A stretch of DNA of 64,000 nt, from the NCBI RefSeq assembly GCF_011764565.1, contig NZ_AP022871.1, forward strand, positions 2,664,320-2,728,319, in the 5' to 3' direction. The DNA is from Phytohabitans suffuscus (GTDB lineage Bacteria; Actinomycetota; Actinomycetes; Mycobacteriales; Micromonosporaceae). Below, piece by piece: positions 5,834 to 33,046 of the stretch. The translations under genes and the position numbers were made by a program. Under the pieces are notes generated by a model, which searched no databases, was not told the origin of the DNA, and saw only the letters and a program-made list of their open reading frames with translations. How positions within the stretch are numbered: position 1 is the first letter of the stretch; each line of letters begins with the position of its first letter.

Positions 5834-6197
5834 GAAAGCTCCTGTCGAACGCGTCCGTTGCAACGACCACACACCATACGCGGACGAGTGAGCGGAGCGA
5901 GCGCGACCCAACTCAACCCCTGGGCACAGCAGGTAGCGCGCGGGGCGGCGGGTCATGAGCGGTTTTTCCGCTCAACTCCCACCGCCCCGCGCATCCCCCC
6001 GGTTTGGTTCCCCCGCGCGTGACTCGGACCTTAGGTCGCGATAACGCTGCGTGGTTATAGCGTTACATTGCGCTACAGCAGTGTCAAGCTAATCAGGAAA
6101 TTTCTTGATATGCGCCGCTGTGCTGATGGCGCAAACGCCCAGGTGGGGGCGGATACCGCCCAGAGTGGCAGGCCCGCAGCAGGCTACAAGGTCAAAC

Positions 6198-7301: not shown

Positions 7302-7305
7302 GGCG

Positions 7306-9443: not shown

Positions 9444-9643
9444 TTGTCGCCTTCAGGGGTGCGTGCCTCGTCCAGCAGCAGCACCGGGATGCCGTCGCGC
9501 ACCTCGAAGATCCGCCCGCACTCGGTGCAGGTCAGGGTCTCGGCGGCGGCGTCGTACTCCAGCGGTGCGTGATGCGTGTCCGGGCACGCGAGGATCTCCA
9601 GCAACTGCGTGTCCAGAGACACCGGACGCTCCTTCCAAAGCAC
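9440..9643 (-). CDS. Trm112-family small protein (DUF343)
   Basis: 67 aa with LEILACP...[18 protein letters not shown] zinc-ribbon-like Trm112 signature; ATGA overlap with the SIS gene. Confidence 0.65.
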
Positions 9644-9722
9644 TGTGCTCCCGCGCTGGTTGGGGGTCGCGGGCCCGCGGCCCGCCCGCCAGCGCCCAAG
9701 GTATCGGGGTGCTGCGATGATC

Positions 9723-10502
9723 CTAAACGTCGCCGGGCAGGCCGGCCGGCAGCGTGGTGAGCAGCCGTTCCACGTAGTCGGCGGTGTCCTGCCAGCGGGT
9801 TACCGCCACGCACCGGATACCCATCGCCTTGACCGGGTAGTCGTTGCCACCCTCGTCGAGGCGGTCGCCGACGAAGAGCACGTCCTCGTTGGTCAGTCCG
9901 AGGTGCTGGACCAGCTTGGTCATCCCGTACGCCTTGTCGACGCCCTTCTTGGTCACGTCGACCGACGTCGAGCCGCCGCTGCGCACCTCCAGGTCGGGCA
10001 GCCGGGCCGCGGCGTAGTCGCGCAGCGCGCCCTTCTTGGCGCCGTCCGGGTCCCACGCGTACTTGGCGTCGACCGGCGCGCGCTGCCCCAGCGCGGAGAA
10101 CGTCACCTGGCTGCCGCGGTCTTCGATGATCTCGCCCCACGGCTCGGGCTCCCAGATGCCGAGCGCCTTCGCCCCCTCGACCAGCACCGAGACGATCCGC
10201 TCCTTGGCCTCGTCGCTGAGATCCTCGGCGTAGACCAGGCCCCAGCCCTCGCCGATCCAGCGGTAGTAGCGGGTGCCGCAGGTGGGCATCAGGTGCAGCC
10301 GGTCACGCACGGCGGCGTCGAGGTCGAGGTGGCGCAGCACCTGGGTGTCGAACTGCTCGAACCGCCCGCCCGAGATGACGCAGACGTCCACCTGGGCCAG
10401 CAGCTCGGCCAGGAGCTTCGCCATGCGGTCGTCGATCTGGGACTTCGACACGGCGAGTGTGTCGTCGAGGTCGAATGCCACGACTCGAATGTTCCCCGCC
10501 AA
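9723..10502 (-). CDS. HAD-IIB family hydrolase (eukaryotic-type phosphomannomutase-like)
   Basis: FDLDDTL motif I, later [12 protein letters not shown] motif; 259 aa; TTG start assumed. Confidence 0.6.
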
Positions 10503-10562
10503 CAGAAGCCTCCCACGCGACTACGATCGAACCCGCTTCCCAACTTCCCGAGAGGATACGTC

Positions 10563-13786: not shown

Positions 13787-13893
13787 ACTCTAGACCCCAA
13801 ACGGAAACAGTCGCCTGGCACCTTGTCTGCCGCGAATTCAGTCGCGAAGATGGCGGGTGAGATGCGATAACCGCCGTTCACCGGGAGACCTCG

Positions 13894-15326
13894 ATGACTG
13901 ATAAGCAAACCCTGCGCAACTTCGTCAACGGGGAGTACGTCGATCCGGTCGACGGTGGCTACAGCGACCTGGTCGACCCCTGTACCGGCGAGGTCTTCGC
14001 CCAGGCCCCGATCTCCTCCGAGCGCGACGTCGACCTCGCGATGAGCGCCGCCGCCACCGCCTTCGAGTCGTGGCGCGACGCGACGCCGGCCGAGCGGCAG
14101 AAGGCGATGCTGAAGTTCGCCGACGCGGTGGAGTCGCGGGCGGCCGAGCTTGTCGACGCCGAGGTGCGCAACACGGGCAAGCCGCGCCAGCTCACCGCCG
14201 ACGAGGAGCTGCCCCGGCCGTCGACGAGCTGCGCTTCTTCGCCGGCGCCGCCCGGATGCTGGAGGGGCGCTCGGCCGGCGAGTACATGGCGGGCCACACC
14301 TCGTACGTGCGGCGCGAGCCGATCGGCGTCGTCGGCCAGGTGACCCCGTGGAACTACCCGCTGATGATGGCGATCTGGAAGATCGCGCCGGCGCTGGCCG
14401 CGGGCAACGCGGTCGTGCTCAAGCCGTCCGACACCACCCCGGTCTCCACGCTGCTGCTCGCCGAGATCGCGTCGGAGTTCTTCCCGGCGGGCGTCTTCAA
14501 CGTGGTCTGCGGTGACCGCGACACCGGCCGCTCGCTCGTCGCCCACCCGACCCCGCAGCTGGTCTCGATCACCGGCTCCACGCGGGCCGGCAAGGAGGTC
14601 GCCGCGGCGGCCGCACCCGACCTCAAGCGCACTCACCTGGAGCTGGGCGGCAAGGCGCCGGTCGTGATCTTCGACGACGCCGACCTGGCCGCGGCGGCCG
14701 AGGCCATCGCGGTGGGCGGCTACTTCAACGCCGGCCAGGACTGCACCGCCGCCACCCGCGTGCTCGCCGGCCCCGGCGTGTACGACGACTTCGTGGCAGC
14801 GCTGGTCGAGCAGGCGCGGGAGACCAAGACCGGCCTCCCGGACGACGAGGACGTGCTCTACGGCCCGCTCAACAACGCCAACCAACTCGCCCGCGTGACC
14901 GGCTTCGTGGACCGGCTGCCCGACCACGCCGCGCTCGGCATCGGCGGCTCGCGCGTCGGCGACCGCGGCTTCTTCTACGCGCCCACGGTCGTGTCGGGCG
15001 TGCGGCAGCAGGACGAGATCATCCAGGACGAGGTCTTCGGGCCGGTGATCACGGTGCAGCGCTTCACCGACGAGGAGGAGGCGGTGCGCTGGGCGAACGG
15101 CGTCGAGTACGGCCTCTCCGCCTCGGTGTGGACCAAGGACCACGGGCGCGCGATGCGGATGACCCGCCGGCTCGACTTCGGCTGCGTGTGGGTCAACACC
15201 CACATCCCGTTCGTCTCCGAGATGCCGCACGGCGGGTTCAAGCACTCCGGGCACGGCAAGGACCTTTCCGTGTACAGCCTGGAGGACTACACCCGGATCA
15301 AGCACGTCATGCACAACTGGGGTTAG
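13894..15326 (+). CDS. Aldehyde dehydrogenase (gamma-aminobutyraldehyde/succinate-semialdehyde type); apparent -1 frameshift near 14212
   Basis: N-terminal part in frame 13894 (...NTGKPRQLTADEELP), remainder in frame 14070 (AVDELRFFAGAAR...ELGGKAP...GQDCTAA...EVFGPV). Junction lies in a C-run. Confidence 0.75.
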
Positions 15327-15329
15327 GCG

Positions 15330-16679
15330 ATGCCCACTTCGGAGGAAATCCACAAGCGGCGTACGGCGGCGGTGGCCCGCGGCGTCGGCAGCGTCATCAG
15401 CTCCTATGTGGACCACGCGGGCGGCGGCACGCTGACCGATGTGGACGGTCGGGAGTGGATCGACTTCGCTTCCGGCATCGCGGTCACCTCCGTCGGCAAC
15501 TCGGCTCCCCGGGTCGTCGAGGCGGTGCGCGAGCAGGTGGCCCGCTTCACCCACACCTGCTTCATGGTCGCGCCGTACGAGTCCTATGTGGCCGTCGCCG
15601 AGACACTGAACGCGTTGACGCCGGGCGGGTTCGACAAGCGCACGGCGCTCTTCAACTCCGGCGCCGAGGCGGTGGAGAACGCCGTGAAGATCGCCCGGCA
15701 CGCGACCGGGCGGCCGGCCATCGTGGTGTTCGACCACGCGTACCACGGGCGCACCAACCTCACGATGGCGATGACGGCCAAGAACATGCCGTACAAGCAC
15801 CGGTTCGGCCCGTTCGCCGGGGAGATCTACCGGGTGCCGATGTCGTACCCGTTCCGGGACGGCGGCCTCAGCGGTGCGGAGGCCGCCGCCCGCGCGCTGG
15901 ACCAGGTGGACAAGCAGGTCGGCGCGGCCAACGTGGCAGCGGTCATCGCCGAGCCGATCCAGGGCGAGGGCGGCTTCGTCGTCCCCGCGGACGGCTTCCT
16001 GCCCGCGCTGGCCGCCTGGTGCCGCGACGCCGGCGCGCTCTTCGTGGCCGACGAGATCCAGACCGGCTTCTGCCGCACGGGGTCGTGGTTCGCCTGCGAG
16101 TGGGAGGGCGCCGTTTCCGGCGCTGCTGCGCGTGCCCACGTCGCGGACCCGCGACGTGGGCACGCGCGGCGAGAGGAGTGGGCACCCGACCTGGTCACCA
16201 TCGCCAAGGGCATCGCCGGCGGGCTGCCGCTCGGCGGGGTCACCGGGCGCGCGGAGATCATGGACGCGGTGCACCCGGGCGGGCTCGGCGGCACGTACGG
16301 CGGCAACCCGCTCGCCTGCGCCGCCGCCCTGGCCGCGATCGAGACCATGCGCGAGCTGGACCTCGCCGCGGCGGCCCGCCGGATCGAGTCGGTGACGATG
16401 CCGCGCCTGCGCGCCCTGGCCGAGCGCGACCCGCGCATCGGCGACGTACGCGGGCGCGGCGCGATGCTCGCCGTGGAGATCGTCGCGCCCGGCACCATCA
16501 TCCCGGACGCGGCCACGGCCGGCGCTGTCTCGGCCGCCTGCCACCGGTCCGGCCTGCTCACGCTGACCTGCGGCACGTACGGCAACGTGCTCCGCTTCCT
16601 GCCACCCCTGGTGATCGGCGACACGACGCTGGCGCGCGCCCTGGAAATCCTCGACGGGGCCTTCGACACCACCACCTGA
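15330..16679 (+). CDS. gabT: 4-aminobutyrate aminotransferase-like class-III PLP aminotransferase carrying a 22-aa palindromic in-frame insertion
   Basis: Collinear with GabT (DHAYHGRT, ADEIQTGFCRTG, TIAKGIAGG, GTYGGNP). There is extra sequence SGAAARAHVADPRRGHARREEW between FACEWEG and APDL. Confidence 0.8.
   Translation: MPTSEEIHKRRTAAVARGVGSVISSYVDHAGGGTLTDVDGREWIDFASGIAVTSVGNSAPRVVEAVREQVARFTHTCFMVAPYESYVAVAETLNALTPGGFDKRTALFNSGAEAVENAVKIARHATGRPAIVVFDHAYHGRTNLTMAMTAKNMPYKHRFGPFAGEIYRVPMSYPFRDGGLSGAEAAARALDQVDKQVGAANVAAVIAEPIQGEGGFVVPADGFLPALAAWCRDAGALFVADEIQTGFCRTGSWFACEWEGAVSGAAARAHVADPRRGHARREEWAPDLVTIAKGIAGGLPLGGVTGRAEIMDAVHPGGLGGTYGGNPLACAAALAAIETMRELDLAAAARRIESVTMPRLRALAERDPRIGDVRGRGAMLAVEIVAPGTIIPDAATAGAVSAACHRSGLLTLTCGTYGNVLRFLPPLVIGDTTLARALEILDGAFDTTT
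16128..16167. repeat. Perfect 19-bp inverted repeat inside the gabT coding sequence
   Basis: gcgcgtgcccacgtcgcgg-ac-ccgcgacgtgggcacgcgc, flanked by a gagtggg direct repeat (16100 and 16178). Confidence 0.6.
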
Positions 16680-16760
16680 CCACCACACCCACCGCGGGCA
16701 TCGCGTTAGCTCGAATCGCCCTGATCGCCCGGGAGCCGGGCGCGCGGAAAGCCCCGGCCG

Positions 16761-16818
16761 CGCGGGAAGGCGGGCGGTCGCGCGGGAAGGCGGGCGGTCG
16801 CGCGGGAAGGCGGGCGGG
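16761..16818. repeat. 20-bp tandem direct repeat (about 2.9 copies) in a convergent intergenic region
   Basis: cgcgggaaggcgggcggtcg repeated twice exactly, plus a partial third copy. Confidence 0.7.
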
Positions 16819-16835
16819 AGGAAAGACGCGGGCGG

Positions 16836-17243
16836 CTACGAGGCGGCGAGTGCGCTGAAGGCGGGCAGGTGGTGGTCGGCGCGGCCGGCGAAGAGGGCCA
16901 TCTCGTAGGCGATCGCGTCGACGTCGGAGTCGGCTTCGAAGACGACGGCGAGGATGGCGCCGCCGGCGGTGGCGGTGACGAAGAGGAACTTCTCCCGCAT
17001 CTCGATGGTGATCTGGCGGACGCCGCCGCTCTCGGTGTGGCGGCCGGCTGCCACGGCCAGGGCGTACAGGCCGGCGGCCACAGTGGACAGCTGGTCGGCG
17101 GCTATCGGGCCGGCGTGGCGGGAGGCGGCCAGCAGGAGGCCGTCGGGAGAGATGGCCACCGCGTGCTCCGCGCCCGGAACGCGGTCGACGACGTCGTCGA
17201 GAAGCCAGGCCAGGTCTTCGCTCGTTACCGCCGGGTGCGCCAC
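16836..17243 (-). CDS. Roadblock/LC7 (MglB-like) domain protein
   Basis: About 136 aa from the GTG at 17243 (RBS GAGGGGG). C-terminal region matches the roadblock fold pattern (…ISPDGLLLAAS…VFEADSDVDAIAYEMALF). The long Arg/Gly-rich N-terminus in the track is rejected. Confidence 0.6.
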   Translation of the reverse strand: MAHPAVTSEDLAWLLDDVVDRVPGAEHAVAISPDGLLLAASRHAGPIAADQLSTVAAGLYALAVAAGRHTESGGVRQITIEMREKFLFVTATAGGAILAVVFEADSDVDAIAYEMALFAGRADHHLPAFSALAAS

Positions 17244-17269
17244 GTCGTCATTCCCCCTCGTCGTAACCT

Positions 17270-19834
17270 TCAGTCCATCGGGCGTCGCGGCCAAGGTGCC
17301 CGGCGCGACGCTGCGCCCGGCCGGTCCGCGGACATGGCACGCAGCTTGGCCAGCAGGTCGCCGCGGTTGGCGCAGCCCAGTCGCTGGCGCATGCGTGCCA
17401 CGTGGTGCTCGACCGTCTTGGCCGATATGAAGAGGCGGTCGCCGATCTGCCGATACGTCAGCCCGTCGAGTACCAGATCCGCCACCTCCTGTTCCCGCTC
17501 GCTGAGCAGGCTCTCCGCGGGCGCGGTGAACGCCTCTGTGACCTGCGCCACGGCCGGCTGAGCCGCGGTCTGGGCGCCGCCTGCGCGGGCCGAGCCCTGA
17601 AGCAGCCGGGCACAGTCCAGCAGAGCGGTCATGGCCTTGCGGTCCGACGTACGGATCGCGGCCTGCCCCGCCAGCCGTGCTCCGTCCCACCAGAGTCCCG
17701 CACCGTGCAAACCCCTCGCGGCAGCCTCCACTTTGGCCGGATCGACCGCCCCACGCAGTGTCTCCAGCCAGCTCTCCGCGGCTGCCGCTACCACCGCACC
17801 GTACCGGCTGTGCTGGGCGGTCGCCACCAATGCGGCGGCGTGTTCATCGGCAGTTGTTGGTTCCTCGGCGATGATGGCGGCGTGCAGGGCGCACCAGTGC
17901 AGCGGCGCCGTCCACAGTGGTGGGCGGCCGAGGCGGTCGAGAAGCCGCCACGCCTCGGCCAGATGGGTGGCCATCCGGGCCTGCTCCCCCAGTCGGGCGG
18001 CGGCGACAGCCAGCTCACCGAGGGGCAGCAGTGAGTACAGGTCGACGGGGTGCCGCATGACCGCCTCGCGGGCCTGTGCCCAGGCGCGGTGCAGCCCCGC
18101 CAGGTCGCTTTCGCGGCGGGCGATGCCGGCGTCGAGCGCGGTGGCGTAGAGCAGGTCGCGCGGCTCGAGTGGGCCGGTGCCGGCGGCGGCGCGGTGCTCG
18201 GCCGCCGACGCGGTGCGTCCGCGCACCATCTGCATCCAGCCGAGCAACAGACGGTGGCGGCGCGACATCAGGGCGGCACCGACGTCGGCGGCGACCGCCC
18301 GGTCGAGCACGGACTCGCCGGTGTCCAACTCGCCACAGTGGATGGCCACGAGCGCGGCGAGCGCGGCCGGGCTGTCGGGCAGCAGCACCGCCCGGCCGGC
18401 CGGCTCCAGGAGCGCGGCCGCCTGTACCAATGTGGACAATGCCGCCGTGGCCGAGCCGGAAAGGGATTCCCGGATCCCGCTCGCCATCAGGGCGGCCGCG
18501 CCGGTGAGCAGGGTGGGCGGGCCGTCCGGCGGCACCAGGTCGTCGGCCCGTCCGAGCTGCCCGGTGCCGATGAAGCCGATCGCCGCGAACGACACCGACG
18601 ACGTCGTGCCCGACCACCGGTACAGCTCCGCGCTGCGGCCGAGCTGCCCGCGATGGGCGAGCGCGGAGCCCGATACCGCCGCGCCCACCGCGCGGTCGGG
18701 CGAGCCCTCGGCGGCGACGAGGCGGTCGGCGAGGCGGAGGCCGGCGTCGAGGTCGCCGGAGAGCGCGGCGGCCAGCGCGCGGCGCGCGGCGGTGGGCCGC
18801 CCGGCGGACGCGGCGACCGCGAACAGCTCCGCGGCCAGCGCCGGCTCGTCCACCAGTGCCTCTTCGGCCGCGGCCTCGAACATGGCGGCCAGGCCACCGC
18901 CGCCCACCCCGGCGTCGCGCAGGGCCCGCACGAGCGGGAGTACGGCGCCGCCGCGGGCCAGCTGCAGCTCGGCGAGGCGTTGCCACACGGCGGTGCGCTG
19001 CGCGGCGGGGCTGAGCGAGGCGACCGCGCGGCGGGCCACCGGCACCAGCCGGCCGTCGGGCGCCACGAGGCCGGTGGCCCGCGCGGCGTCCAGCAGGTCG
19101 TCGACCGCCTCGGGCGCGCGGTCGAGCAGCGCGCCGAGCAGGTCGGCGGGAAGCTCCACGCCGGTGGCGGCGGCGAGCAGCAGCCCGCGTAGGTCGGCGT
19201 CGAGGTCGTCCAGGTCGGTCCGGAACCGCACGAGCACCTGCGGCGGCAGGCCGGCGTCCGTCCGCTCGACAGTTGGCGCCAGCCGGTCCACCAGCCGGGG
19301 CACGCCACCGGTCTGCGCGAACACGTGCCTGGCGGCCGCGGTGCCAGGCTCGACGCCCAGGTGCTCGGCCGTGCGCTCGGCGGTGAAGGGGCTCAGCACC
19401 AGCGGTGGACCGTCCTGCCGCAGCAGCTCCAGCAGCTCGGCGAGAGCCGCTGGGCGGGGCCACGGCCGGTACGCGAGCACGATCCCCGGCCGCCGTGCCT
19501 CGACGAGCGCGCGCACCTCGCGGAGCCTTTCCTCTCCCACTCTGTGGGCGTCATCCAGGAACAGTACGAACGGACCGTCCTGCGGTGACATCTCCTGCCA
19601 CGCGTCGAGCACCGGCACGTCCGCCCGCCGGTAGATCCGGGTCAGCTCGCGCAGCAGCAGGCTCTTGCCGTACCCGCCGGGGGCCTGGACGGCGACCCGC
19701 AGCGGTGCGTGCGGCGCGACCGTGGCCGCGTCGAGCAACGCCGCGGTCGGCTCGTCCAGGACGAGCCGCGGGGCCGGGACGGTCCGCGAGTCGCGGGGGC
19801 CCCGCGGCGGAGCGCCGGCGTGGGCGGCTTTCAA
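17270..19834 (-). CDS. LAL/STAND-type LuxR-family regulator, candidate IniR-like regulator of iniBAC
   Basis: 854 aa with N-terminal P-loop (GGYGKS), a long helical repeat region and a C-terminal LuxR HTH (LSEREQEVADLVLDGLTYRQIGDRLFISAKTVEHHV). Adjacent and divergent to iniB-iniA-iniC, as is IniR in mycobacteria. Confidence 0.7.
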   Translation of the reverse strand: MKAAHAGAPPRGPRDSRTVPAPRLVLDEPTAALLDAATVAPHAPLRVAVQAPGGYGKSLLLRELTRIYRRADVPVLDAWQEMSPQDGPFVLFLDDAHRVGEERLREVRALVEARRPGIVLAYRPWPRPAALAELLELLRQDGPPLVLSPFTAERTAEHLGVEPGTAAARHVFAQTGGVPRLVDRLAPTVERTDAGLPPQVLVRFRTDLDDLDADLRGLLLAAATGVELPADLLGALLDRAPEAVDDLLDAARATGLVAPDGRLVPVARRAVASLSPAAQRTAVWQRLAELQLARGGAVLPLVRALRDAGVGGGGLAAMFEAAAEEALVDEPALAAELFAVAASAGRPTAARRALAAALSGDLDAGLRLADRLVAAEGSPDRAVGAAVSGSALAHRGQLGRSAELYRWSGTTSSVSFAAIGFIGTGQLGRADDLVPPDGPPTLLTGAAALMASGIRESLSGSATAALSTLVQAAALLEPAGRAVLLPDSPAALAALVAIHCGELDTGESVLDRAVAADVGAALMSRRHRLLLGWMQMVRGRTASAAEHRAAAGTGPLEPRDLLYATALDAGIARRESDLAGLHRAWAQAREAVMRHPVDLYSLLPLGELAVAAARLGEQARMATHLAEAWRLLDRLGRPPLWTAPLHWCALHAAIIAEEPTTADEHAAALVATAQHSRYGAVVAAAAESWLETLRGAVDPAKVEAAARGLHGAGLWWDGARLAGQAAIRTSDRKAMTALLDCARLLQGSARAGGAQTAAQPAVAQVTEAFTAPAESLLSEREQEVADLVLDGLTYRQIGDRLFISAKTVEHHVARMRQRLGCANRGDLLAKLRAMSADRPGAASRRAPWPRRPMD

Positions 19835-21090
19835 GCTAGGCCTCCTACCAGGCCGAAGAGGCGCTGTGTCGGGCGGAGTCGCAACGGGCTGATCTCGACG
19901 GGCGGCCTGGGTGGCGGGCCGGCGTCCATGCCCTCTTGCACGAGCGGCGGCGGCTCATGGTTCGACGCTTCGATGGCCTGTTGCTCCGGAATCCACATTG
20001 GATCCCGCCGCCACGCCCCGGGCGGCGAGACGACCTGCACCGCGGCGAGCGCCCCACCCAGGGCGGCCGTGGTCTGCGGCTCGGCCTCCACGCCGACCGG
20101 GCCGGGCAGTGCGGCGCGGAGCAGCTCCGCGACGAGCGGCATCCGCGCCGCGCCACCCAGCAGGAGGACACCGTCCAGCTCACGCCGCCCCAGGCCGCAG
20201 GAATCGATCACCTGCGCCAGCGTGCCGACGCTCAGCTCCAGCGCCGGCCGGACCAGCTCTTCGAGCTCGGCCCGGGTGACCGGCACCCGCACGTGCCCGT
20301 GAGACGTGCTGAGCACCACCTCGGCCTCGGTGGCCGTGGTCAGCTCCTCCTTCACCCGCCGGCACTCCCGGCGCAGCCCGAAGAGCGCGATCCGGGCCTG
20401 CGGGCCACTCGCGAACACCTCCCGCAGCTCCCGGTCGAGCCGCGACCGCACATGGCCGACGAGAGCCTCGTCGACGTCCGCGCCGCCGAACGGCTCGATC
20501 GCGCCGGCACTGCCGAGGAGTTGGAAACCGATGCCCTCCGCCGATCGCACGACGGAAGCCTCGTAGCCGCTGCCGCCCAGGGAGTACACACCGAACGCAC
20601 GGCCCCTCCAGCCGCGTGCGGCGTGACTCTCGGCAGCGACGACGGGCTCCGGCAGCAACGTGGCGTTGGCCAGGCCGATCTCCCACAGCGCCCGGTGCAG
20701 CAGCTCCCGGCGATACGCGCCCCATGCGGCGGGGTGGCTGATCACCACCTGCTCGGCCGGCTCTCCCTCATGAGCCAGCACCCGCTCGACCACCCACATG
20801 GCCAGCACGGCGGTGAGCGCCTGCGGTGTGCAGGGCTCCCCACCGACGATCTGCGGCACGTCATCGCCGATGCGCCGGACGAAACCGCGGGCCACCCGCC
20901 CCGCGTCCAGCCGCACCGGCTCGCCGACGGTGAGCGCACCGTCGCCAGACACGTGCAGCACCGACGGAACGGCCGTGGACCGCGGTCCCAGCCGTACGAC
21001 CTCAGGCGCCGACCATCCCGCGTTACCCAGCCGCGAGACGGCGGCGGTCGTGGTCGTCCCACCGATGTCGATCCCCAGCACGTATGGCAT
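19831..21090 (-). CDS. Hsp70/actin-fold ATPase-like protein
   Basis: LGIDIGGTTTTAAV phosphate-1 motif and a DnaK-like NBD pattern; 419 aa; ATGA overlap with the LAL regulator start. Confidence 0.6.
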   Translation of the reverse strand: MPYVLGIDIGGTTTTAAVSRLGNAGWSAPEVVRLGPRSTAVPSVLHVSGDGALTVGEPVRLDAGRVARGFVRRIGDDVPQIVGGEPCTPQALTAVLAMWVVERVLAHEGEPAEQVVISHPAAWGAYRRELLHRALWEIGLANATLLPEPVVAAESHAARGWRGRAFGVYSLGGSGYEASVVRSAEGIGFQLLGSAGAIEPFGGADVDEALVGHVRSRLDRELREVFASGPQARIALFGLRRECRRVKEELTTATEAEVVLSTSHGHVRVPVTRAELEELVRPALELSVGTLAQVIDSCGLGRRELDGVLLLGGAARMPLVAELLRAALPGPVGVEAEPQTTAALGGALAAVQVVSPPGAWRRDPMWIPEQQAIEASNHEPPPLVQEGMDAGPPPRPPVEISPLRLRPTQRLFGLVGGLA

Positions 21091-21249
21091 CCGAACGCTC
21101 TCCTCCCAGCGGACCCATACGTTCGTACCAGAGATGTTCGTGCAGCTGAGCCACTAATTCTGGGGCGGCGGACCCCCTAATCCCCTAACCCGGAAACCCG
21201 GCGCGGTCCCCGATGCCCGGGGGATCACCGCACTCCTACGGTCTGCGAC

Positions 21250-22158
21250 ATGGAATCGACCCAGACACTGCACGACTTCGTGCTTAACCTCCTCACCAAC
21301 CCTGAGGCGCGCTCGGCGTTCGAGCTGGACCCAGAGGGCACGCTGAACGCCGCGGGGCTCGGTGACATCACCGCCGCGGACGTGCAGGACGTGGTCCCCC
21401 TGGTCGTGGACTACGCGCCCGTACAGGGGATCACCGGCCTGGTCCCGGGCGACCTGGGCTTGGGCCAGATCGGCGCGCTCGACGGTGACGCCACCAACGT
21501 GATCGGCCAGCTCCAGACGGTCACCCAGCAGCTTTCCGCCGGCGTACCCACCCCCAGCGCCGACGCCAACGTCAACGTCGCCGCGGTCGGCGCGATCACC
21601 GTCGACACCAGCGGTGTCAGCCTCGCGACCACCGGGCTCATCCCCGGTCTCGGCGTCGCGGCCAGCACGTCCGGCGCCTCGGTCGACCTCTCCGGCGCGC
21701 ACGACCTGGCCGGCACGCTCGACTCCGACATCGTCGGTACGGTCGGCGCGGACGCGACCGGCACGGTCGACGCGACGCTGGGCACGGCCACCGGCCTGGT
21801 CCCGGGCGCGCCGGTGGACAGCGTGCTCGGCACCACCGACGACACCCTGGGCACCGTCGACGCGCAGCTCGACGGCGTGACCGGCCTGGTCGGCTCGCTG
21901 ACCGCCCCGCTCGGCGTCCCGCCGGTCGACCTGCCGGAGCTGGACGACACCCTGGGCAACGACTCGCTGCTGGGCGGCGCCACGGGCACTGTGAACAGCA
22001 CGCTCGACGGCGTCGGCGTGGGCGGCATCCTCGGCGGCGGCGCGGAGGCGCACGGATCGGCGAGCGCGGCCGGCCTGCACGGCACGGTCCACGGCTCGGC
22101 GAGCGCCGACGCGCACGCCAACGGCGGCCTGCTCGGCGTCACCGACATCCTGTTCTGA
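21250..22158 (+). CDS. iniB: IniB N-terminal-domain protein with Gly/Thr/Val-rich repeats
   Basis: N-terminus MESTQTLHDFVLNLLTNPEARSAFELDPEGTLNAAGL matches the conserved IniB N-domain. The remainder is a low-complexity G/A/T/V repeat as in mycobacterial IniB. Confidence 0.65.
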   Translation: MESTQTLHDFVLNLLTNPEARSAFELDPEGTLNAAGLGDITAADVQDVVPLVVDYAPVQGITGLVPGDLGLGQIGALDGDATNVIGQLQTVTQQLSAGVPTPSADANVNVAAVGAITVDTSGVSLATTGLIPGLGVAASTSGASVDLSGAHDLAGTLDSDIVGTVGADATGTVDATLGTATGLVPGAPVDSVLGTTDDTLGTVDAQLDGVTGLVGSLTAPLGVPPVDLPELDDTLGNDSLLGGATGTVNSTLDGVGVGGILGGGAEAHGSASAAGLHGTVHGSASADAHANGGLLGVTDILF

Positions 22159-22265
22159 ACCCGTCCGGAGAACCAGGCGTCACGGCTGGTTCTCGCAGCG
22201 TCACCGCGGTGCCAGGGATGGGAGGCCGGACTCGGGCCCGGCCTCCCATCCCACTTGATATATGA

Positions 22266-24110
22266 GTGGAAATCAGCAGACTTGGTCCGGTGATGGCACC
22301 GATCTGGCTCGACACCCTCGACGAGACGGCTCGGGTATGCGCGGCGCACAGCCGCACCGACCTCGTCCGGCGCCTCCTGCAAAAGCGGGAGCAGCTGCTG
22401 GACCCCACCCTGCGGGTGCTTGTCGTCGGCGAGCCCAAGCAGGGCAAGAGCCAGCTCGTCAACGCACTGATCAACGCGCCGGTCTGCCCCGTGGGCGACG
22501 GCCTGACCACCGCCATCCCCACGGTCGTGCGGCACGCGGAGACGCCCTCGGCGGCCCTGGTGCACGAGGGGGACGAAGACGAGCGCGTGCCGATGCCGGT
22601 GGCCGACATCGCCGCCCGGATCAGCGCCACGACCCCGGGCCGCCGGCCGGGCGTGAGCGAGGTGCACGCCGAGATCGGTGTCCCTCGTGGACTCCTGGCG
22701 AGCGGCATCGTGCTCATCGACACCCCCGGAGCGGACGGCGACGACCCGACCACCGGCAGCGGTGTGTCGGCCCTCCCCCGCGCCGACGTCGTCGTGATGG
22801 TCACCGACGCGACCCGCGAGCTCTCCGTCTCCGAGGTCAACCTGCTGCTGCACATCGTCCAGTCGCACCCGCGGGTGGTCGTCGCGCTCACCAAAATCGA
22901 CATCTCGCCGCACTGGCGCGCGGTCGCCGAGCGCAATCGGGAGCACCTCGCGAGCGCCGGCGTGCCCGCCGTGCTCGTGCCGGTGTCGGCGACGCTGCGG
23001 CTGCAGGCCGCGCGCACCAACGACAAGGCGGTCAACGCGGAGTCCGGCTTTCCGGACCTGATCGCCCGGCTCAAGCGGGAGCAGGGCGCCAAGGGGCAGG
23101 TGCTCGCGCCGGCCGCGGTGGGGCTGATCGCGAGCACGGTCGTCGAGCAGCTCGCCGCGCCGCTGCGCGCCGAGCTGTCCACTGAGGACTCCGGCTCCCT
23201 GCACCGGCTGTACGAGGCGCAGCGCGGGCTCGACGAGCTGCGCCGCTGCTCCACCCGCTGGCAGAACACGCTGGCCGACGAGATGACGGATCTGATCTCC
23301 GACATGGAGTACGACCTGCGCGACCGCACGCGGCAGATCATGCGCAAGGTCGACGAGGCGTTCGAGACGGCCGACCCGCTGAAGACCTGGGACGACTACC
23401 AGGCGTGGATGGAGCAGAGCCTGACCGAGGCGGCCGAGGCCAACTTCGCCTGGCTGCTGCAACGCTGCGACTGGGTCACCGGACGGGTCGCCGACCACTT
23501 CGTCCGGTACGGGGCCGACATCCTCCCCGAGTGGCGGGCCGGCATCCCGGACCGGCTGGCCGAGCAGCTGGAGGAGCTCGAGCGGCCCAGCGTGGAAAAG
23601 TTCACGCCGGTGCAGAAGGTCTTCAGCGGCCTCCGCGGCTCGTACGGCGGCCTGCTCATGTTCGGCCTCGCCACGACGCTCGCCGGCATGCCGCTGATCA
23701 ACCCGGTCTCGCTCGGCGCGGGCGCGCTCTTCGGCGGCAAGACCATCCGCGACGAGGGCAAGACGATGCTGCGCCGGCGGCAGGCAACCGCCAAGATGGC
23801 CTCGCAGCGGCACGTCGACGACTTCTTCCTCCGGCTCAACAAGGAGTGCAAGGACACCGCGCGGTGGGTGCAGCGGGCGCTGCGCGACCACTTCACCGGG
23901 CTGACCGAGCAGCTGCAGGAGGCGATCGTCCACTCGCTGCGCAGCGCCAAGCAGGCCGCGGACGCCGACGCGCTGGAGCGCGAGCAGCGCAAGCGGGAGG
24001 TGCAGCAGCAGATGCGCCGGCTGGCCGCGCTGTACGACCGGGCGCAGGCCCTGACCGCGCTGGGTGGCTCCCCGGCACAGCCGCAGCGCCGCCTGGAGCC
24101 CGTCGGATGA
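22266..24110 (+). CDS. iniA: Dynamin-like GTPase, IniA-like
   Basis: G1 GEPKQGKS, G3 DTPG, G4 TKID; 614 aa; long helical stalk. Start may instead be the ATG at 22293. Confidence 0.75.
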   Translation: MEISRLGPVMAPIWLDTLDETARVCAAHSRTDLVRRLLQKREQLLDPTLRVLVVGEPKQGKSQLVNALINAPVCPVGDGLTTAIPTVVRHAETPSAALVHEGDEDERVPMPVADIAARISATTPGRRPGVSEVHAEIGVPRGLLASGIVLIDTPGADGDDPTTGSGVSALPRADVVVMVTDATRELSVSEVNLLLHIVQSHPRVVVALTKIDISPHWRAVAERNREHLASAGVPAVLVPVSATLRLQAARTNDKAVNAESGFPDLIARLKREQGAKGQVLAPAAVGLIASTVVEQLAAPLRAELSTEDSGSLHRLYEAQRGLDELRRCSTRWQNTLADEMTDLISDMEYDLRDRTRQIMRKVDEAFETADPLKTWDDYQAWMEQSLTEAAEANFAWLLQRCDWVTGRVADHFVRYGADILPEWRAGIPDRLAEQLEELERPSVEKFTPVQKVFSGLRGSYGGLLMFGLATTLAGMPLINPVSLGAGALFGGKTIRDEGKTMLRRRQATAKMASQRHVDDFFLRLNKECKDTARWVQRALRDHFTGLTEQLQEAIVHSLRSAKQAADADALEREQRKREVQQQMRRLAALYDRAQALTALGGSPAQPQRRLEPVG

Positions 24111-24120
24111 AGCACCCCGC

Positions 24121-25548
24121 GTGACTTCGGTACTCGAAGAGTCGGTGTGGCGCCTCATGCACGGGGCGCTCGACCTCTACCACGACAGCCCGCCCGCCGC
24201 CGAGCAGCTCCGCCACCACCTGAGCCGGTTCGACGAGCCGCTGCGCATCGCCATCGCGGGGCCCTGGCAGGCGGGCAAGTCCACATTGGTCAACGCGATC
24301 GTCGGCGAGGAGGTCGCGCCCATCGAGGTGCCGGACGCCGAGCAGGTCTTCACCTGGTACCAGGACGGCCCCGAACCGCACGCCACCGCCTACCCGGCGG
24401 GGATCGAGCTGCCGGTCGCCCGGACCGCCAACGGGCTGCGGGTGGACATCCGGCGGTGGCGGCCGGCACCGGTGAACGACCTGGTTATCACCTGGCCGAG
24501 CCGGGCACTGCGCAACGCCACCCTTGTGGACACTCCGGCGCTGCCCGACTCCGGCGACAAGGTGCTGCGGGACGCGGACGCGGTGCTCTACCTGACCCGT
24601 GACGGGCGCGGCACCGACCTGGAGTGGCTGGAGTCGGCGCAGGACGGCACGGTCGCGCGGGCCGCCCCGGTCAACGTGATCCTCGTGCTCTCCCGCGCCG
24701 ACGAGATCGGCGGCGGCCGCATCGACGCGCTGCTCGCCGCCAAGCAGCTCGCCCGCAAGCACCACCGCGACCACCACGTCGGCTCGCTCTGCCTCGCGGT
24801 GGTGGCGCTCGGCGGCCTGGTCGCGCTCGCCGGCCGGGTCCTCGGCGACCGCGACTACACAGCACTGTCCACACTGGCCGGTACCCCGCGCCCGGAGCTG
24901 GAGCCATATTTGCTCACCACCGACCGGTTCGTGGGTGAGGACTTTCCCGCGCCGGTCGACGTGCGGACCCGGGAGGACCTGCTCGACCGGCTCGGCATCT
25001 TCGGCGTACGGCTGGCCACGACGCTGATCCGCGCCGGCACGGGCACCGACACCCGGGCCGGGCTGGCGGCCGAGCTGGTGCGCCGCAGCGGCCTGAGCGA
25101 GCTGCGCGAGGCGGTCGGCCGGTGCTTCGTCGACCGGGCCGACGCGCTCAAGGCCCGCTCGGCGCTCGCCGCGCTGGAGGCCGTGCTCCGCACCGAGCCC
25201 CGGCCGGGCAGTGAAAAGCTCCTCGCCGACCTGGAACACACGCTGACCAACGCGCACGACTTCCGCGAGCTGCGGCTCGTCGCGGCGCTCCAGGGCCACC
25301 GGATCAAGTTCGGCGCGGAGCTGGAGGCCGAGGCGCGGCGGCTCGTCGGCGAGGGCGGCACCTCGCCCGCGACCCGGCTGGGCGTCGACCCGCGCACGAA
25401 CCCGGGCCAGCTGTGGGAGCTGGCCTCGGGCGCGCTGGCCCGGTGGCAGGAGCAGACCGAAGACCCCCTGCTGAGCCTGGAGCAGCGCCGGGCCGCGGCC
25501 GTCGTCGTGCGCAGCTGCGAAGGCATCCTGCACGCTCTGTCGTCGTAG
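24121..25548 (+). CDS. iniC: Dynamin-like GTPase, IniC-like
   Basis: G1 GPWQAGKS, G3 DTPAL, G4 SRAD; GTG start 10 nt after the iniA stop; 475 aa. Confidence 0.7.
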   Translation: MTSVLEESVWRLMHGALDLYHDSPPAAEQLRHHLSRFDEPLRIAIAGPWQAGKSTLVNAIVGEEVAPIEVPDAEQVFTWYQDGPEPHATAYPAGIELPVARTANGLRVDIRRWRPAPVNDLVITWPSRALRNATLVDTPALPDSGDKVLRDADAVLYLTRDGRGTDLEWLESAQDGTVARAAPVNVILVLSRADEIGGGRIDALLAAKQLARKHHRDHHVGSLCLAVVALGGLVALAGRVLGDRDYTALSTLAGTPRPELEPYLLTTDRFVGEDFPAPVDVRTREDLLDRLGIFGVRLATTLIRAGTGTDTRAGLAAELVRRSGLSELREAVGRCFVDRADALKARSALAALEAVLRTEPRPGSEKLLADLEHTLTNAHDFRELRLVAALQGHRIKFGAELEAEARRLVGEGGTSPATRLGVDPRTNPGQLWELASGALARWQEQTEDPLLSLEQRRAAAVVVRSCEGILHALSS

Positions 25549-25603
25549 CGGATCGACCGCCGCGCCGCCGGCGGCGTCGAGGTCTGCGGCCCGCCGCGGT
25601 TTC

Positions 25604-25632
25604 TCGACATCCACCAGCCGCGCGATGTCGAG
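25604..25632. terminator. Hairpin 55 nt downstream of iniC
   Basis: ctcgacatc ... gatgtcgag, 9-bp arms with a 12-nt loop; no T-tract. Confidence 0.25.
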
Positions 25633-25709
25633 AATCCGGCGCTGGCTGCGTCCCAGGGAGGTAGCGTCCCACGACGGGCCGCACCACGAGGAGTATGGAG
25701 GGCGTAGCG

Positions 25710-26054
25710 GTGAGCGAGATTCAGGGTATCGCCCGGTTCAGGTTTCACGAGGGCCTGATCGGGGAGTTCAAGCGCCTGTCCGAGGAGTGCATGGAGATCG
25801 TGCGGGCCAAGGACACCGGGACCCTGCAGTACGAGATCTACTTCAACGACGACCAGTCCGAGGCCATCGTCCTCGAGCGGTACCGGGACTCCGAGGCGCT
25901 CGTCGAGCACCTGGCGAACGTCGGTCACCTCATGGAGGCGATCCTCGCGACGGCCTCGGTCTCCGGCGAGGTCCTCGGTGAGGCGAACGCCGAGCTACGA
26001 GCGATGCTGGCCGGCAGCGAGGTCCGCCTCTTCGCGCCCTTCCAGTCGATGTAG
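25710..26054 (+). CDS. Antibiotic-biosynthesis-monooxygenase (ABM/Dabb) family protein
   Basis: About 114 aa ferredoxin-like ABM pattern (IARFRFHEG...LERYRDSEALVEH). I prefer the GTG at 25710 (GGAGGG 7 nt upstream) over the ATG at 25695. Confidence 0.55.
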   Translation: MSEIQGIARFRFHEGLIGEFKRLSEECMEIVRAKDTGTLQYEIYFNDDQSEAIVLERYRDSEALVEHLANVGHLMEAILATASVSGEVLGEANAELRAMLAGSEVRLFAPFQSM

Positions 26055-26055
26055 C

Positions 26056-29000
26056 TCAGGATACGGGGCCCTGGATGCGGTCGGCGGCGCGTTCTATCGC
26101 CGACTCGACCGCTCCGACCCGGTCGGCGAGCAGGCCCACGGCGCCGACGGCGCGACTCATCGGGTCGTCCTCGGCGCCGCCGAGGGCCTTGGCCTTCAGG
26201 TAGCCGGCCTTCACCTCGTCCCACCGGGCGGCCCGCTCCGGAGTGAGCCGGCCACGCAGCTCGGCCAGCTTGAGCAGGTTGGCCTCGGCGTTGGCGGCCA
26301 GCGTCTGCGCCTCGCCCAGGTAGTGGTCGTCGATGACCGCGTCCAGCTCGGCGTCGTTCATCACCGGCACGATCCGCTCGGCCAGCTTGTTCATGTTTCG
26401 GTACGAGCCCTGCAGCTGGTACGGCGGCTCGGTGCGGGACGCGTCGGACTGGGCGGCCGAGGCGATGTACGCCAGGTTGTTGGTGAGCACCACCTGCTGC
26501 ACCCGGAGCAGCTTGCGCAGCACCGCGAGGATCTGATCCAGCTCGACCGCCGAGTACGGGTGGGCGAGCTGGTCGGGGCGCACCGACCCGTCACCCTTGG
26601 CGAGCCGCACGAGCAGCTCCAGGTCGCTACGGTCCCTTGTGGACAGCGCGGCGAGCACCTGGTTGGCGGTCAGCGAGTTTTCGATGTAGCTGAGCGCGAA
26701 GAGCTGCTCCTTGCCGGAGAGCACGTCGCCGAGGTTCCACACGTCGGCGCGGTTGGCGAGCATGTCCGGGATCCGGAAGCGCTTGCCCGACTCCGTGTAC
26801 GGGTTGCCCGCCATGCACACCGCGAAGCGCTTGCCCCGCAGGTCGTACGTGCGGGTGCGCCCCTCCCACACACCCTCCATCCGGCGCTGCGCGTCGCAGA
26901 GCGAGATGAACTTCTGCAGCAGCTCCGGCGAGGTGTGCTGGATGTCGTCGAGGTAGAGCAGCACGTTGTTGCCCATCTCCAGGGCGAACGAGATCTTCTC
27001 CACCTCCTGCCGGGCGGTGGCGTTGGGCGCCTCGGCCGGGTCGACGGAGGTGACCGCGTGCCCCAGGGCCGGGCCGTTCACCTTGACGAAGACCAGGCCG
27101 AGGCGGCTCGCCACGTACTCCATCAGGGTGGTCTTGCCGTAGCCGGGCGGCGAGATGAGCAGCAGCAGGCCCATCTGGTCGGTGCGCTTGGCGTCACCCA
27201 CCGCGCCGAGCTGGCGGGCCAGGTTGTCGCCGATCAGCGGCAGGTAGACCTCGTCCAGCAGCCGGTTGCGGACGAACGCGCTCATCACCTTCGGCTGGTG
27301 CTCGGCGAGGCGCAGGCGGGTGCGCTCGCGCGCGATGAGGTCGTTGCGCTGCCGCTGGTACGCCCGGAAGGCCGGCACCCGCTCGTCGCGGAAGCGGCGG
27401 ACGCGGGTGAGCGCCTCGTCGAGCCGCAGCTCCAGCTGGCGGCTCGCGATCCGCGGGTGGGTGCCGAGCAGACCCTCCACAGTGGCCGACAGCACCGCCG
27501 ACGAGTCGTGGCGCGGCAGGTCGGCGCCGCACAGCTCGATGGCGATCGCCTCGGGCAGCTCGGGCGCGGGCTTTTCGCCCACGAACGCGTCGAGCCAGGC
27601 CGACACGAGCTGGTGCCGCGCGGCCAGGTCACCGCCGAGCGCGCGCAGGTCGTCGTCGAACGACTCCACCTTCGGCCCGCCGAGGGCGCGGTGGAAGCGG
27701 TCGAGCAGTTCGCGGGCGCCGGCGCTGGTGACGAAGCCGGAGGGCGCGCTCGCCAGCTCCTCGAAGAGGTACTCGCCGGCGAGGTGGCCGTCCAGCGGGA
27801 GGCGTCGTTCGCCCAGGAAACGGCCGACCGCCCCGGAGAGCTCGGCGGTCAGCTCCGCGATCGCCGGTCCCGGGCCGAACGCCGCGCGGGCCCGGGCCAT
27901 CGAACCGGCCCGCGTGGACCATGCGCCGCGGGACGCCTCGTCGGTGCCGTACGCCCAGAAGAGCTGCGCGGCGGCACGGGCGACCGGCGGGTAGCGCAGC
28001 AGCCCCGCACCGGCGTGCAGGCGGAGCAGCGCGTCGAGGATCGCGGCCGCGTCCTGGTCGTGCACGCCCCGCTCGTACCCCTCGTCGTAGCGCGTCTCGG
28101 CCGCACGCCGCACCAGGTCGCGCAGCCCACCCTCGGCGACGGCCACCTCGTGCAGGTCGTCCAGGTCGCCGTCGAGCAGGATCGACGCGGCGAGGAACTC
28201 GGCCCGGTACACCTCCGGCGTCTCCGAGACCAGCAGCTGCTCCCAGTACGGCCGGGTGGCCTCGAACGCCTCGTCGCGCACCGCCGCCCGGTAGTCGGTG
28301 CCGGTGACCGCGACCGCCATCCGGCCGTCGTGCGGCACGAGCGTGAGGTCGATCGCCTGGGTGTTGACCGCGAAGCGGTGCCGGCCCAGCGCGATCGTCT
28401 CGCCACCGTCGCTGTAGAGGTCGAGCCGGTCGCGCAGGCTCCGGCCGGCCTCCTGGCGGGCCGCCTTGATCCGGCCGTCCAGCTCCTCGGCGCGCACCGC
28501 GTCACCGAGGTCGCGCAGCTCCTGCGCCACCGAGCGGAGCTTGGCCACCATGGGGTCGCCGGCGAAGTACGTGTTGACCTCGTCGATCGTCTTCAGCGTG
28601 GCGATCCGCCGCTGCACGCTGGCGAGGATGCGGTCGGCGGAGTCGACCAGCCGGTCGGAGCGGCGGGCCCGCTCGTCCAGCAGCGCCTGCTTGCGCGCGG
28701 AGAACACCTCGTAGACATCGGTGCGCTTGGCACCCAGGTCGGCCAGGAAGTCGTCGAACTCGCCGAACCGCGACTCCAGGTTTTCCAGCTGTAGCAGCAG
28801 CCGGCCAAGCTGCTCGTCGCAGCGCTCCGGGGTGTCGGCGACCGCGAGCGCGCCGGTGATCGCCTGGCCGAGCAGCGCGAACTCGGCCGCGAACTCGGCC
28901 CGCCCCTCGGTGGCGAGCAGCTCCTTGCGCCGACCCTCCAATGTGGCCCGGGCGCGGTTGACGCCGCCCAGCACCTCGCCGATCCGCTCCAGGATCGAGG

Positions 29001-33035: not shown

Positions 33036-33046
33036 GAGGGTCCCTC

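Follow-up and report, generated by a model that had tools for sequence, protein, structure and literature searches.

The window analysed here is a stretch of 64,000 nucleotides from the actinomycete Phytohabitans suffuscus (contig NZ_AP022871.1), and our subject is a cluster of six genes at its positions 16836-25548 that we compare with the iniBAC operon of mycobacteria and its regulator, IniR. At the GC content of the window, 72%, most long open reading frames are spurious, and real genes were chosen by the GC content of third codon positions, which backs all six. The iniB-, iniA- and iniC-like genes occupy the plus strand; genes for an Hsp70-like protein (Hsp70L), a STAND/LuxR-type regulator and a roadblock protein diverge from them on the minus strand. 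Among Phytohabitans species all six are under purifying selection, with ratios of nonsynonymous to synonymous substitution rates (Ka/Ks) of 0.05-0.28. The locus is the P. suffuscus version of an actinobacterial IniR-iniBAC module, which probably works by the mechanism proposed further on. Its genes are:

16836..17243, minus strand: roadblock/LC7 (CvnB/MglB-type) protein, 135 amino acids, last gene of the minus-strand operon (Pfam PF03259 Robl_LC7, 2e-20)
17270..19834, minus strand: IniR-like STAND ATPase and LuxR-family activator, 854 amino acids (NCBIfam NF038181, GerE, Walker motifs, AlphaFold)
19831..21090, minus strand: Hsp70L, 419 amino acids, a nucleotide-binding domain (NBD) only, plus a disordered tail (PF00012, DnaK NBD in PDB, AlphaFold)
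21250..22158, plus strand: IniB-like protein, 302 amino acids (NF038175, IniB_NTERM, 71.6 bits, cutoff 40)
22266..24110, plus strand: IniA-like dynamin-like GTPase, 614 amino acids (322 bits to Mycolicibacterium smegmatis IniA, PDB 6J72)
24064..25548, plus strand: IniC-like dynamin-like paralogue, 494 amino acids from a GTG at 24064 or 475 from a GTG at 24121, the latter start being more likely

Several lines of evidence identify the regulator, which is of the LAL type. It has the architecture of a STAND protein, in which a P-loop NTPase (Walker A APGGYGKS at residues 51-58, Walker B LFLDDAH at 91-97) is followed by a helical sensor and a C-terminal LuxR helix-turn-helix (HTH; GerE at 776-827, 4e-14). 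Its AlphaFold model is confident (pLDDT 92.5) and finds its closest fold matches in PDB in the STAND-TPR protein 6MFV, Avs3 and MalT (8BOB). The hidden Markov model for IniR, NF038181, matches it at 457.6 bits (E 9e-137) over model positions 6-825 of 827; the next-best family reaches 37 bits, in the HTH only, and MalT 21 bits. These matches support a protein that is specifically IniR-like in sequence, more than a generic LAL fold, and an earlier reading of the locus from its letters alone (the sequence-only reading), which took the LAL for a plausible IniR, is borne out by the full-length match and by the conserved gene order described below. The family is large: at E<1e-30 it counts 436 cluster representatives (clusters of 50% identity), and among its named members are proteins of Pseudonocardiaceae, Nocardiaceae, Rhodococcoides and others. 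Among 63 diverse homologues, the most conserved positions of the sensor region (residues ~585-743, window 17610-18080) are W585, D598, P604, E607, W641, W647, W689 and W716; this Trp/Asp/Pro set is a candidate for a ligand- or partner-binding surface common to the orders. One homologue, P0135, is an actinobacterial-type IniR-like protein 47% identical to that of the window but deposited under Parasphingorhabdus pacifica, a proteobacterium, and is probably a contamination or a mislabelled assembly.

The plus-strand genes are of the ini type as well. Residues 15-598 of the IniA-like protein align to 5-597 of M. smegmatis IniA; scores against other dynamins are 23 bits for BDLP/mitofusin, 24-26 for LeoA/LeoBC in PADLOC, and 20 for Bacillus subtilis DynA (NF052648, cutoff 1600). 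Its G1 (GEPKQGKS, 55-62), G3 (DTPG, 152-155) and G4 (TKID, 209-212) motifs are all intact, and the lipid-binding region of the M. smegmatis protein is aligned to a conserved hydrophobic membrane hairpin at 458-492. The IniC-like protein is 35-44% identical (E 1e-71 to 1e-102) to the IniC of six distant loci, which include Mycolicibacterium, Pseudonocardia, Arthrobacter and Nocardia; in all six, IniA and IniC each match their own counterpart, and cross-matches between the two reach only ~1e-5. No solved structure matches IniC by sequence.

The pair thus groups with IniA and IniC (322 bits for IniA against 20-26 for the DynA and LeoA types), and profile, structure and synteny matches confirm the iniB-iniA-iniC architecture that had been read from the letters. 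It had also been read as having clean G1, G3 and G4 motifs in both dynamins, which is true of IniA and fails for IniC: G1 lies at 66-74, G3 is DTPA (156-159), G4 is SRAD and the switch-I threonine is absent, so that the canonical GTPase motifs are lacking. The same degeneration runs through the family, in that G3 is DTPA or DTPP, without the switch-I threonine, in 76 of 78 Micromonosporaceae; DTPG is kept in Mycobacteriales, Pseudonocardia and Arthrobacter. Selection on the gene is strongly purifying (Ka/Ks ~0.09), and judged by its motifs the IniC of Micromonosporaceae may be a catalytically dead dynamin partner. For the IniB-like protein, a profile search finds the IniB N-domain that the earlier reading had named, at the 71.6 bits given above. 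The glycine-, threonine- and valine-rich repeats reported with it are another matter. Residues 61-302 are acidic low complexity (G 19%, L 13%, A 13%, T 12%, V 11%, D 9.5%; 35 D/E against 1 K/R), and the DNA holds a single weak 18-nt repeat of 2.2 copies, so that the repeats reflect compositional bias and are not true tandem repeats.

Dynamin pairs also serve in DynA/LeoABC-type phage defence or toxin release and in Streptomyces DynAB-type division, and LAL regulators are common in actinomycete gene clusters, where this one could be a generic pathway regulator. We regard such an origin of the locus as highly improbable. The weak PADLOC matches to LeoA and LeoBC (23-26 bits), which were all that PADLOC gave and on which a defence-system reading was rejected, compare with 322 bits over the full length of IniA, ~25 for LeoA/BDLP and 20 for DynA; moreover, a gene with an IniB N-domain lies upstream of the pair, the match of the regulator to the IniR model is full-length, and there are no biosynthetic genes near the locus.

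Gene order around these genes is conserved far beyond their family. A scan of one genome per species yielded 80 Micromonosporaceae loci, and the five core genes, with Hsp70L-LAL divergent from iniB-iniA-iniC, are present in 77 of them; the other three are cut by contig ends. An arrangement that recurs in 77 of 80 species loci is far beyond chance. The regulator gene likewise adjoins and diverges from iniB/iniA/iniC in Mycolicibacterium loci whose regulator is named IniR by NCBI. In one of these, Mycolicibacterium sp. S3B2, iniR shares 4 nt with an Hsp70 gene that diverges from IniB-IniA-IniC; M. chubuense has the same layout, and an Rv0338c-like Fe-S protein comes next, as it does in M. tuberculosis. 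In Rhodococcoides trifolii, Nocardia nova and a metagenome-assembled genome, Hsp70L and then LAL adjoin the dynamin pair, and in Arthrobacter all five genes lie on one strand in the order Hsp70L-LAL-IniB-IniA-IniC. These comparisons show that Hsp70L, IniR, IniB, IniA and IniC form a gene set conserved in Micromonosporales, Pseudonocardiales, Mycobacteriales and Micrococcales.

The sequence-only reading had taken the Hsp70-like and roadblock genes for parts foreign to the mycobacterial system, and for an elaboration peculiar to a non-mycobacterial actinomycete. In its wider form, this explanation holds that both genes are lineage-specific additions that turn a simple mycobacterial IniR system into a more elaborate sensor. 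It draws on the finding that in M. tuberculosis and M. marinum no gene of the Hsp70 type separates iniR from iniB* (Boot et al. 2017), and on the roadblock gene, which is confined to Micromonosporaceae and absent from all seven distant loci. For Hsp70L it fails, because that gene adjoins IniR/iniBAC in two species of Mycolicibacterium and in Nocardia, Rhodococcoides, Arthrobacter, the metagenome-assembled genome and Pseudonocardia, and because a "dnaK-like gene" next to iniR in M. smegmatis is mentioned in one sentence by Boot et al. 2017. We therefore find the explanation improbable. That the Hsp70-like gene stands outside the described system is correct for M. tuberculosis and M. marinum only, and synteny of the supposed trio with ini genes elsewhere extends to Hsp70L and LAL across orders and leaves the roadblock behind in Micromonosporaceae. 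From these gene orders the Hsp70L partner can be regarded as ancestral and widespread and only the roadblock as lineage-specific; the layout of M. tuberculosis and M. marinum looks like a reduced form of a wider module, and the simplest history would be an ancestral Hsp70L-IniR pair that was later unlinked in slow-growing mycobacteria.

Hsp70L itself is an Hsp70 NBD encoded directly upstream of iniR inside the ini cluster, and its sequence is 100% identical to that of an NCBI protein from P. suffuscus, a member of the Micromonosporaceae. It matches PF00012 over residues 83-350 (1.4e-26) and the DnaK NBD in PDB (7e-27); AlphaFold models residues 1-355 as a confident NBD and 360-419 as disordered, the tail carrying a conserved motif, PPPRPPVxIxPLxLR. 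It falls outside the Hsp70 chaperones, with 93 bits to the DnaK/HscA models against equivalog cutoffs of 620-1019, and has V71, S170 and G175 at the sites of DnaK K70, D194 and T199. A match to PF23717 that is precomputed for Hsp70L homologues was not reproduced in our Pfam search.

The gene is closely joined to that of the regulator. The start codon of LAL lies on the stop codon of Hsp70L, with a 4-nt overlap, in 67 of 79 Micromonosporaceae loci; Mycolicibacterium shows a 4-nt overlap as well, and gaps of 1-7 nt separate the genes in Arthrobacter, Nocardia, Rhodococcoides and M. chubuense. An overlap of 4 nt had been noticed before and is present, but its letters in P. suffuscus are TTGA and not ATGA, the form usual in Micromonospora relatives. 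A 1476-residue protein, P0285, from the metagenome cluster of P0162, was considered as an Hsp70L-IniR fusion and rejected: it arises by a frameshift ~50 codons before the Hsp70L stop in one assembly, against the two-gene arrangement P0277 + P0286, and is probably an assembly error or rare variant.

The architecture of Hsp70L varies between lineages. All seven proteins from outside Micromonosporaceae, 575-681 residues long, have a single transmembrane (TM) helix and end in a Pro/Thr/Gly-rich tail. Within the family the helix is kept by some members (Planosporangium sp. 12N6, Plantactinospora); the Phytohabitans protein ends ...RLFGLVGGLA, where the helix would start, and has neither helix nor Pro/Thr-rich tail. 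The idea that this loss was offset by gain of a membrane sensor, CvnA (see below), was dropped, as in Plantactinospora the Cvn module and an Hsp70L with a TM helix occur together. Pseudonocardia and Arthrobacter retain the catalytic Lys, Asp and Thr, which Phytohabitans and Mycobacteriales have lost, and the window protein is 38-42% identical to the Pseudonocardia and Arthrobacter forms, compared with ~30% to the mycobacterial ones. Two Nocardiaceae loci have extra genes after the IniR-like gene, some of them faintly similar to Hsp70L (L082, 12559-16747; L084, 12528-16751), among them a second, divergent Hsp70-like protein at 13702-15300 of L082 (PF00012, 6e-12).

In M. smegmatis, MSMEG_0691 is, from the literature, the orthologue of Rv0339c (IniR). 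MSMEG_0692 is described as a Pro/Thr-rich, ATP-binding protein with one TM helix, found by cross-linking only in FhaA complexes, together with proteins of the MmpL3 network. Its assigned M. tuberculosis counterpart, Rv0312, is essentially unstudied in the literature. When Rv0312 was sought with the Mycolicibacterium Hsp70L as query, all of the 120 matches listed were from fast-growing mycobacteria, and the link to Rv0312 is literature-based.

The second feature to emerge from the comparison lies between the divergent operons. The elements of this control region, in the coordinates of the window, are:

21091..21249, no strand: divergent Hsp70L-iniB control region, 159 bp (alignment of 18 loci; element spacing fixed in 74 loci)
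21121..21131, minus strand: conserved CTGGTACGAAC block, ~40 nt before the Hsp70L start (65 of 74 loci)
21151..21157, minus strand: third, degenerate box TTAGTGG, upstream of the predicted Hsp70L promoter; aligns with TTAGGGT in other genera
21174..21188, minus strand: two adjacent TTAGGGG boxes (GTTAGGGGATTAGGGGG), candidate IniR operator
21206..21215, minus strand: CATCGGGGAC box, a related TCGGGG box by the iniB promoter
21237..21242, plus strand: −10-like TACGGT, 7 nt before the iniB ATG (TANNNT hexamer conserved at this alignment column; role presumed)

Read on the Hsp70L-sense strand from the iniB side, the invariant blocks are CATCGGGGAC, GTTAGGGGATTAGGGGG, a third TTAGKG box and CTGGTACGAAC. 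Each of 74 intergenic regions holds two or three copies of TTAGGG, a density of 8.9/kb compared with 0.003/kb in 2.9 Mb of flanking DNA (~2,600-fold), and box spacings are fixed at 57-59 and 58-60 nt throughout. CATCGGG occurs in all 74 Micromonosporaceae regions, and the CTGGTACGAAC block, where present (65 of 74 loci), is always 58-60 nt from GTTAGGGG. An unbiased count across eight intergenic regions from eight genera found TAGGGG to be the only 6-mer present in all eight, a result that 0 of 200 shuffles reached; TCGGGG occurs in seven of the eight genera. Three boxes are found in each Mycolicibacterium locus, Rhodococcoides has the identical core, and boxes are also present in Nocardia, Pseudonocardia, the metagenome-assembled genome and Arthrobacter, there between LAL and iniB. 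Same-strand (T/C)T(A/C)GGGG repeats with fixed spacing are thus found in lineages of Micromonosporales, Pseudonocardiales, Mycobacteriales and Micrococcales.

This distribution makes the TAGGGG repeat array a candidate IniR operator. Boot et al. (2017), who defined IniR and described its MalT-like and LuxR-like domains, showed by chromatin immunoprecipitation sequencing that it occupies the iniBAC promoter, and defined no binding motif. The CTGGTACGAAC block could belong to the Hsp70L-iniR promoter as its −10 region, or could be bound by a second regulator. The TACGGT hexamer lies so close to the ATG that the iniB mRNA of Phytohabitans may be leaderless; in Micromonospora relatives the iniB leader is longer and has a GGAGAA Shine-Dalgarno sequence. 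A scan of 16600-26200 with σ70 consensus models found no promoters and one terminator at chance level, the consensus being uninformative for an actinomycete of 72% GC, and an Rfam search of the region at E<=0.1 gave no match.

The roadblock gene had been grouped with Hsp70L and the regulator as a co-translated trio. It begins 26 nt past the regulator stop, with no overlap, at a GTG start preceded by a GAGGGGGA Shine-Dalgarno sequence, and the grouping does not survive comparison: the conserved core is Hsp70L-IniR, and the roadblock is a neighbour found in Micromonosporaceae only, normally inside a CvnA-Robl-DUF742 module. Conservons have four core genes, cvnA (histidine kinase-like), cvnB (roadblock), cvnC (DUF742) and cvnD (Ras-like GTPase) (PMC13343842, PMC13621833). 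Downstream of LAL, 53 Micromonosporaceae loci carry a CvnA-like protein (NIT + HATPase), Robl and a CvnC-like DUF742 protein, four carry Robl-DUF742, eight (Phytohabitans species included) Robl alone, and seven none. The P. suffuscus protein is 46-57% identical to the Robl of the Micromonospora module. No CvnD-type Ras-like GTPase was found near the module in any locus examined, and Robl/Cvn genes are absent from all seven loci outside Micromonosporaceae. On this comparison the roadblock is the retained piece of a conservon-like CvnA-CvnB-CvnC module without GTPase, specific to Micromonosporaceae. In most Micromonospora (loci L013-L080, e.g. L028 13836-17386) the Cvn-like set and then a CBM_2-domain protein come directly after the IniR-like gene, and a 730-residue radical-SAM protein with Hint/intein-type matches lies 3' of the Micromonospora cluster (L028 17723-19915).

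Whether the roadblock has a part in the ini system is less clear. It could be the leftover of a neighbouring, unrelated conservon-type module with no functional link to ini, as its place inside CvnA(NIT+HATPase)-Robl-DUF742 in the 53 Micromonospora-type loci, the absence of that module from seven Micromonosporaceae loci and from every other order, and the loss of CvnA and CvnC in Phytohabitans would allow. We count this as a serious possibility, though not the one we favour. The Ka/Ks of the gene among Phytohabitans species, 0.05-0.10, is the lowest of the six and indicates that it is not decaying; its Shine-Dalgarno sequence has been kept; Robl stays when the module shrinks (12 loci have Robl without CvnA, and only one has CvnA/C without Robl); and the module holds its position directly after LAL across genera, without a CvnD GTPase of its own. 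The favoured alternative is a lineage-specific addition from a CvnD-less CvnA-B-C module, on which purifying selection is strong.

The mechanism that we consider probable for the P. suffuscus locus starts from the regulator, which would multimerise on ATP and a stress signal, as shown for mycobacterial IniR, then bind the TAGGGG array, as MalT binds repeated MalT boxes, and activate iniBAC. IniA, a dynamin of the membrane-fission type, and IniC would then remodel or repair the membrane. The regulator would probably also activate its own operon, since one box lies ~40 nt upstream of the predicted Hsp70L −10. Hsp70L is most likely a stoichiometric subunit of IniR that supplies its input or modulates it. 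It would be bitopic in most lineages, its NBD in the cytoplasm joined by one TM helix to a Pro/Thr-rich tail in the wall, and could report envelope status to IniR, by analogy with MalK and MalY, which hold MalT inactive, and because MSMEG_0692 cross-links to the FhaA/MmpL3 envelope-synthesis network. The Phytohabitans protein, which breaks off where the TM helix would begin and no longer has the catalytic Lys, Asp and Thr, would be a soluble and probably non-hydrolysing partner.

Hsp70L could instead be no regulatory partner of IniR at all and belong to the Ini membrane machinery as a co-regulated effector; an example would be a scaffold of actin/Hsp70 fold anchored in the membrane, or a chaperone, serving IniB, IniA or IniC. 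The TM anchor and wall-spanning Pro/Thr-rich tail of most lineages would suit such a role, and the shared intergenic boxes would co-induce Hsp70L with iniBAC. Two further observations, the position of Hsp70L in Pseudonocardia, divergent from iniB and outside any operon with LAL, and the cross-linking of MSMEG_0692 with the elongasome/MmpL3 network and not with a transcription factor, fit this role and that of an IniR modulator equally well. Tight translational coupling to the regulator, not to iniBAC, in nearly all lineages and the Arthrobacter order Hsp70L-LAL-IniB-IniA-IniC speak for the modulator; the missing substrate-binding domain and the catalytic residues lost in several lineages argue against chaperone activity. 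We judge the effector role rather unlikely, though it is the main rival of the modulator role.

Several points weigh against the proposed mechanism, the modulator role of Hsp70L included. In Pseudonocardia xishanensis Hsp70L diverges from iniB and LAL lies beyond iniC, so that the two genes are on opposite sides of iniBAC, an order that ties Hsp70L to the cluster rather than to IniR specifically. The interaction of Hsp70L with IniR is one that we infer from gene order only. Mycobacteriales Hsp70Ls score 51-96 bits to the window protein, no better than DnaK (107 bits), and they are placed in one family by synteny, architecture and intermediate sequences more than by pairwise scores. The orthology of MSMEG_0692 and Rv0312 is taken from the table of one paper. 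The 457.6 bits of the regulator are below the NF038181 equivalog cutoff of 750, a cutoff tuned on mycobacteria, and its identity to mycobacterial IniR is only 34-35%; functional equivalence of the two is accordingly not established. The −10 assignments are our own, the σ70-consensus scan having given no promoter. Micromonosporaceae, to our knowledge, have no mycolic acids, and the trehalose signal reported for mycobacteria may therefore not apply to them.

A bolder proposal goes beyond the modulator role, and we put it forward as speculation that is rather unlikely to hold in full. Hsp70L would be an envelope-status sensor or anti-activator of IniR across Actinomycetota, represented in M. tuberculosis by the unlinked Rv0312; its wall-spanning tail and FhaA/MmpL3 contacts would couple cell-wall synthesis to IniR, which would read the TAGGGG array. 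In Micromonosporaceae, the MglB-type roadblock, out of a G-protein module that lacks a small GTPase, would have been drawn in, and may act on IniA and IniC (IniC being catalytically degenerate in exactly this family) or on IniR.

The flanks at 12341-16679 and 4340-10520 are ordinary metabolism genes: two aldehyde dehydrogenases and a class-III aminotransferase are convergent with Robl, and S-adenosylhomocysteine hydrolase, phosphomannose isomerase, an SIS/PGI-like protein and a PMM/HAD-like hydrolase lie farther out. After iniC comes an ABM monooxygenase-like gene (25695-26054) that is not conserved in related loci. Farther 3' of iniC, on the minus strand at 26056-33636, the list of open reading frames holds a single frame of 2526 codons, which frame-specific GC3 resolves into three genes: a small membrane protein (~33100-33636), a 690-residue membrane/coiled-coil protein without Pfam match (30966-33038) and a 1637-residue DUF3686 + DUF7902 + AAA_5 ATPase (26056-30969).

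No transcriptional response of M. tuberculosis to isoniazid and ethambutol is stronger than that of the iniBAC operon. For mycobacteria, the way in which IniR perceives damage to the envelope and the DNA that it targets are unsettled questions, and a 2026 paper states that the regulatory mechanism of iniBAC is not fully understood. IniR-iniBAC itself was already known; what is new from the comparison is Hsp70L as a conserved part of the module and the prediction of a TAGGGG operator. The first provides a lead on sensing, in that a conserved, usually membrane-anchored Hsp70-fold protein is coupled to IniR in at least four actinomycete orders and has its M. smegmatis counterpart in the envelope-synthesis interactome; the second provides a likely operator, the TAGGGG direct-repeat array. 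If the much-studied locus of M. tuberculosis is a cut-down form of the module, non-pathogenic, tractable actinomycetes can be used to dissect it. The roadblock poses a question of its own, namely the role of an MglB-type protein without a cognate small GTPase beside dynamin-like GTPases.

Compared with known systems, the locus is closest to mycobacterial IniR (Rv0339c/MMAR_0612/MSMEG_0691) and iniB*-iniBAC (Rv0340-Rv0343). The two have in common a regulator divergent from an IniB-N/IniA/IniC operon, full-length matches to the IniR model and to the solved IniA, and the IniA membrane hairpin. Phytohabitans differs in having a single iniB-type gene without a separate iniB*, a degenerate G2/G3 in IniC, a roadblock gene downstream of the regulator, and an Hsp70-like gene translationally coupled 5' of the regulator, as in fast-growing mycobacteria and not in M. 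tuberculosis or M. marinum. With the MSMEG_0692/Rv0312-type proteins Hsp70L shares an N-terminal Hsp70 NBD and a position directly 5' of iniR and divergent from iniB, as in the Mycolicibacterium loci L081 and L087, but it lacks their TM helix and extracytoplasmic Pro/Thr-rich tail. With DnaK and HscA it shares the NBD fold, the phosphate-1 motif DIGGT, the EP motif and the GG..R.P adenosine motif; it has no substrate-binding domain or lid, and no DnaJ or GrpE partner is encoded nearby. Relative to conservons, the window has only cvnB, a CvnB/MglB-type Robl attached to the IniR operon, and lacks CvnA, CvnC and CvnD; in most Micromonospora relatives, Robl lies between a CvnA-like sensor (NIT+HATPase) and a CvnC-like DUF742 protein. 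E. coli MalT is a STAND/LAL activator restrained by MalK, MalY and Aes. Like the regulator studied here it combines a P-loop nucleotide-binding oligomerization domain, a helical arm, a repeat sensor and a LuxR HTH, has repeated short same-strand boxes upstream of its target promoters, and has a partner of ATPase fold encoded alongside. The likeness is a mechanistic analogy only, in that sequence similarity is detectable in the HTH only (21 bits) and the partner is of Hsp70/actin fold and not an ABC ATPase.

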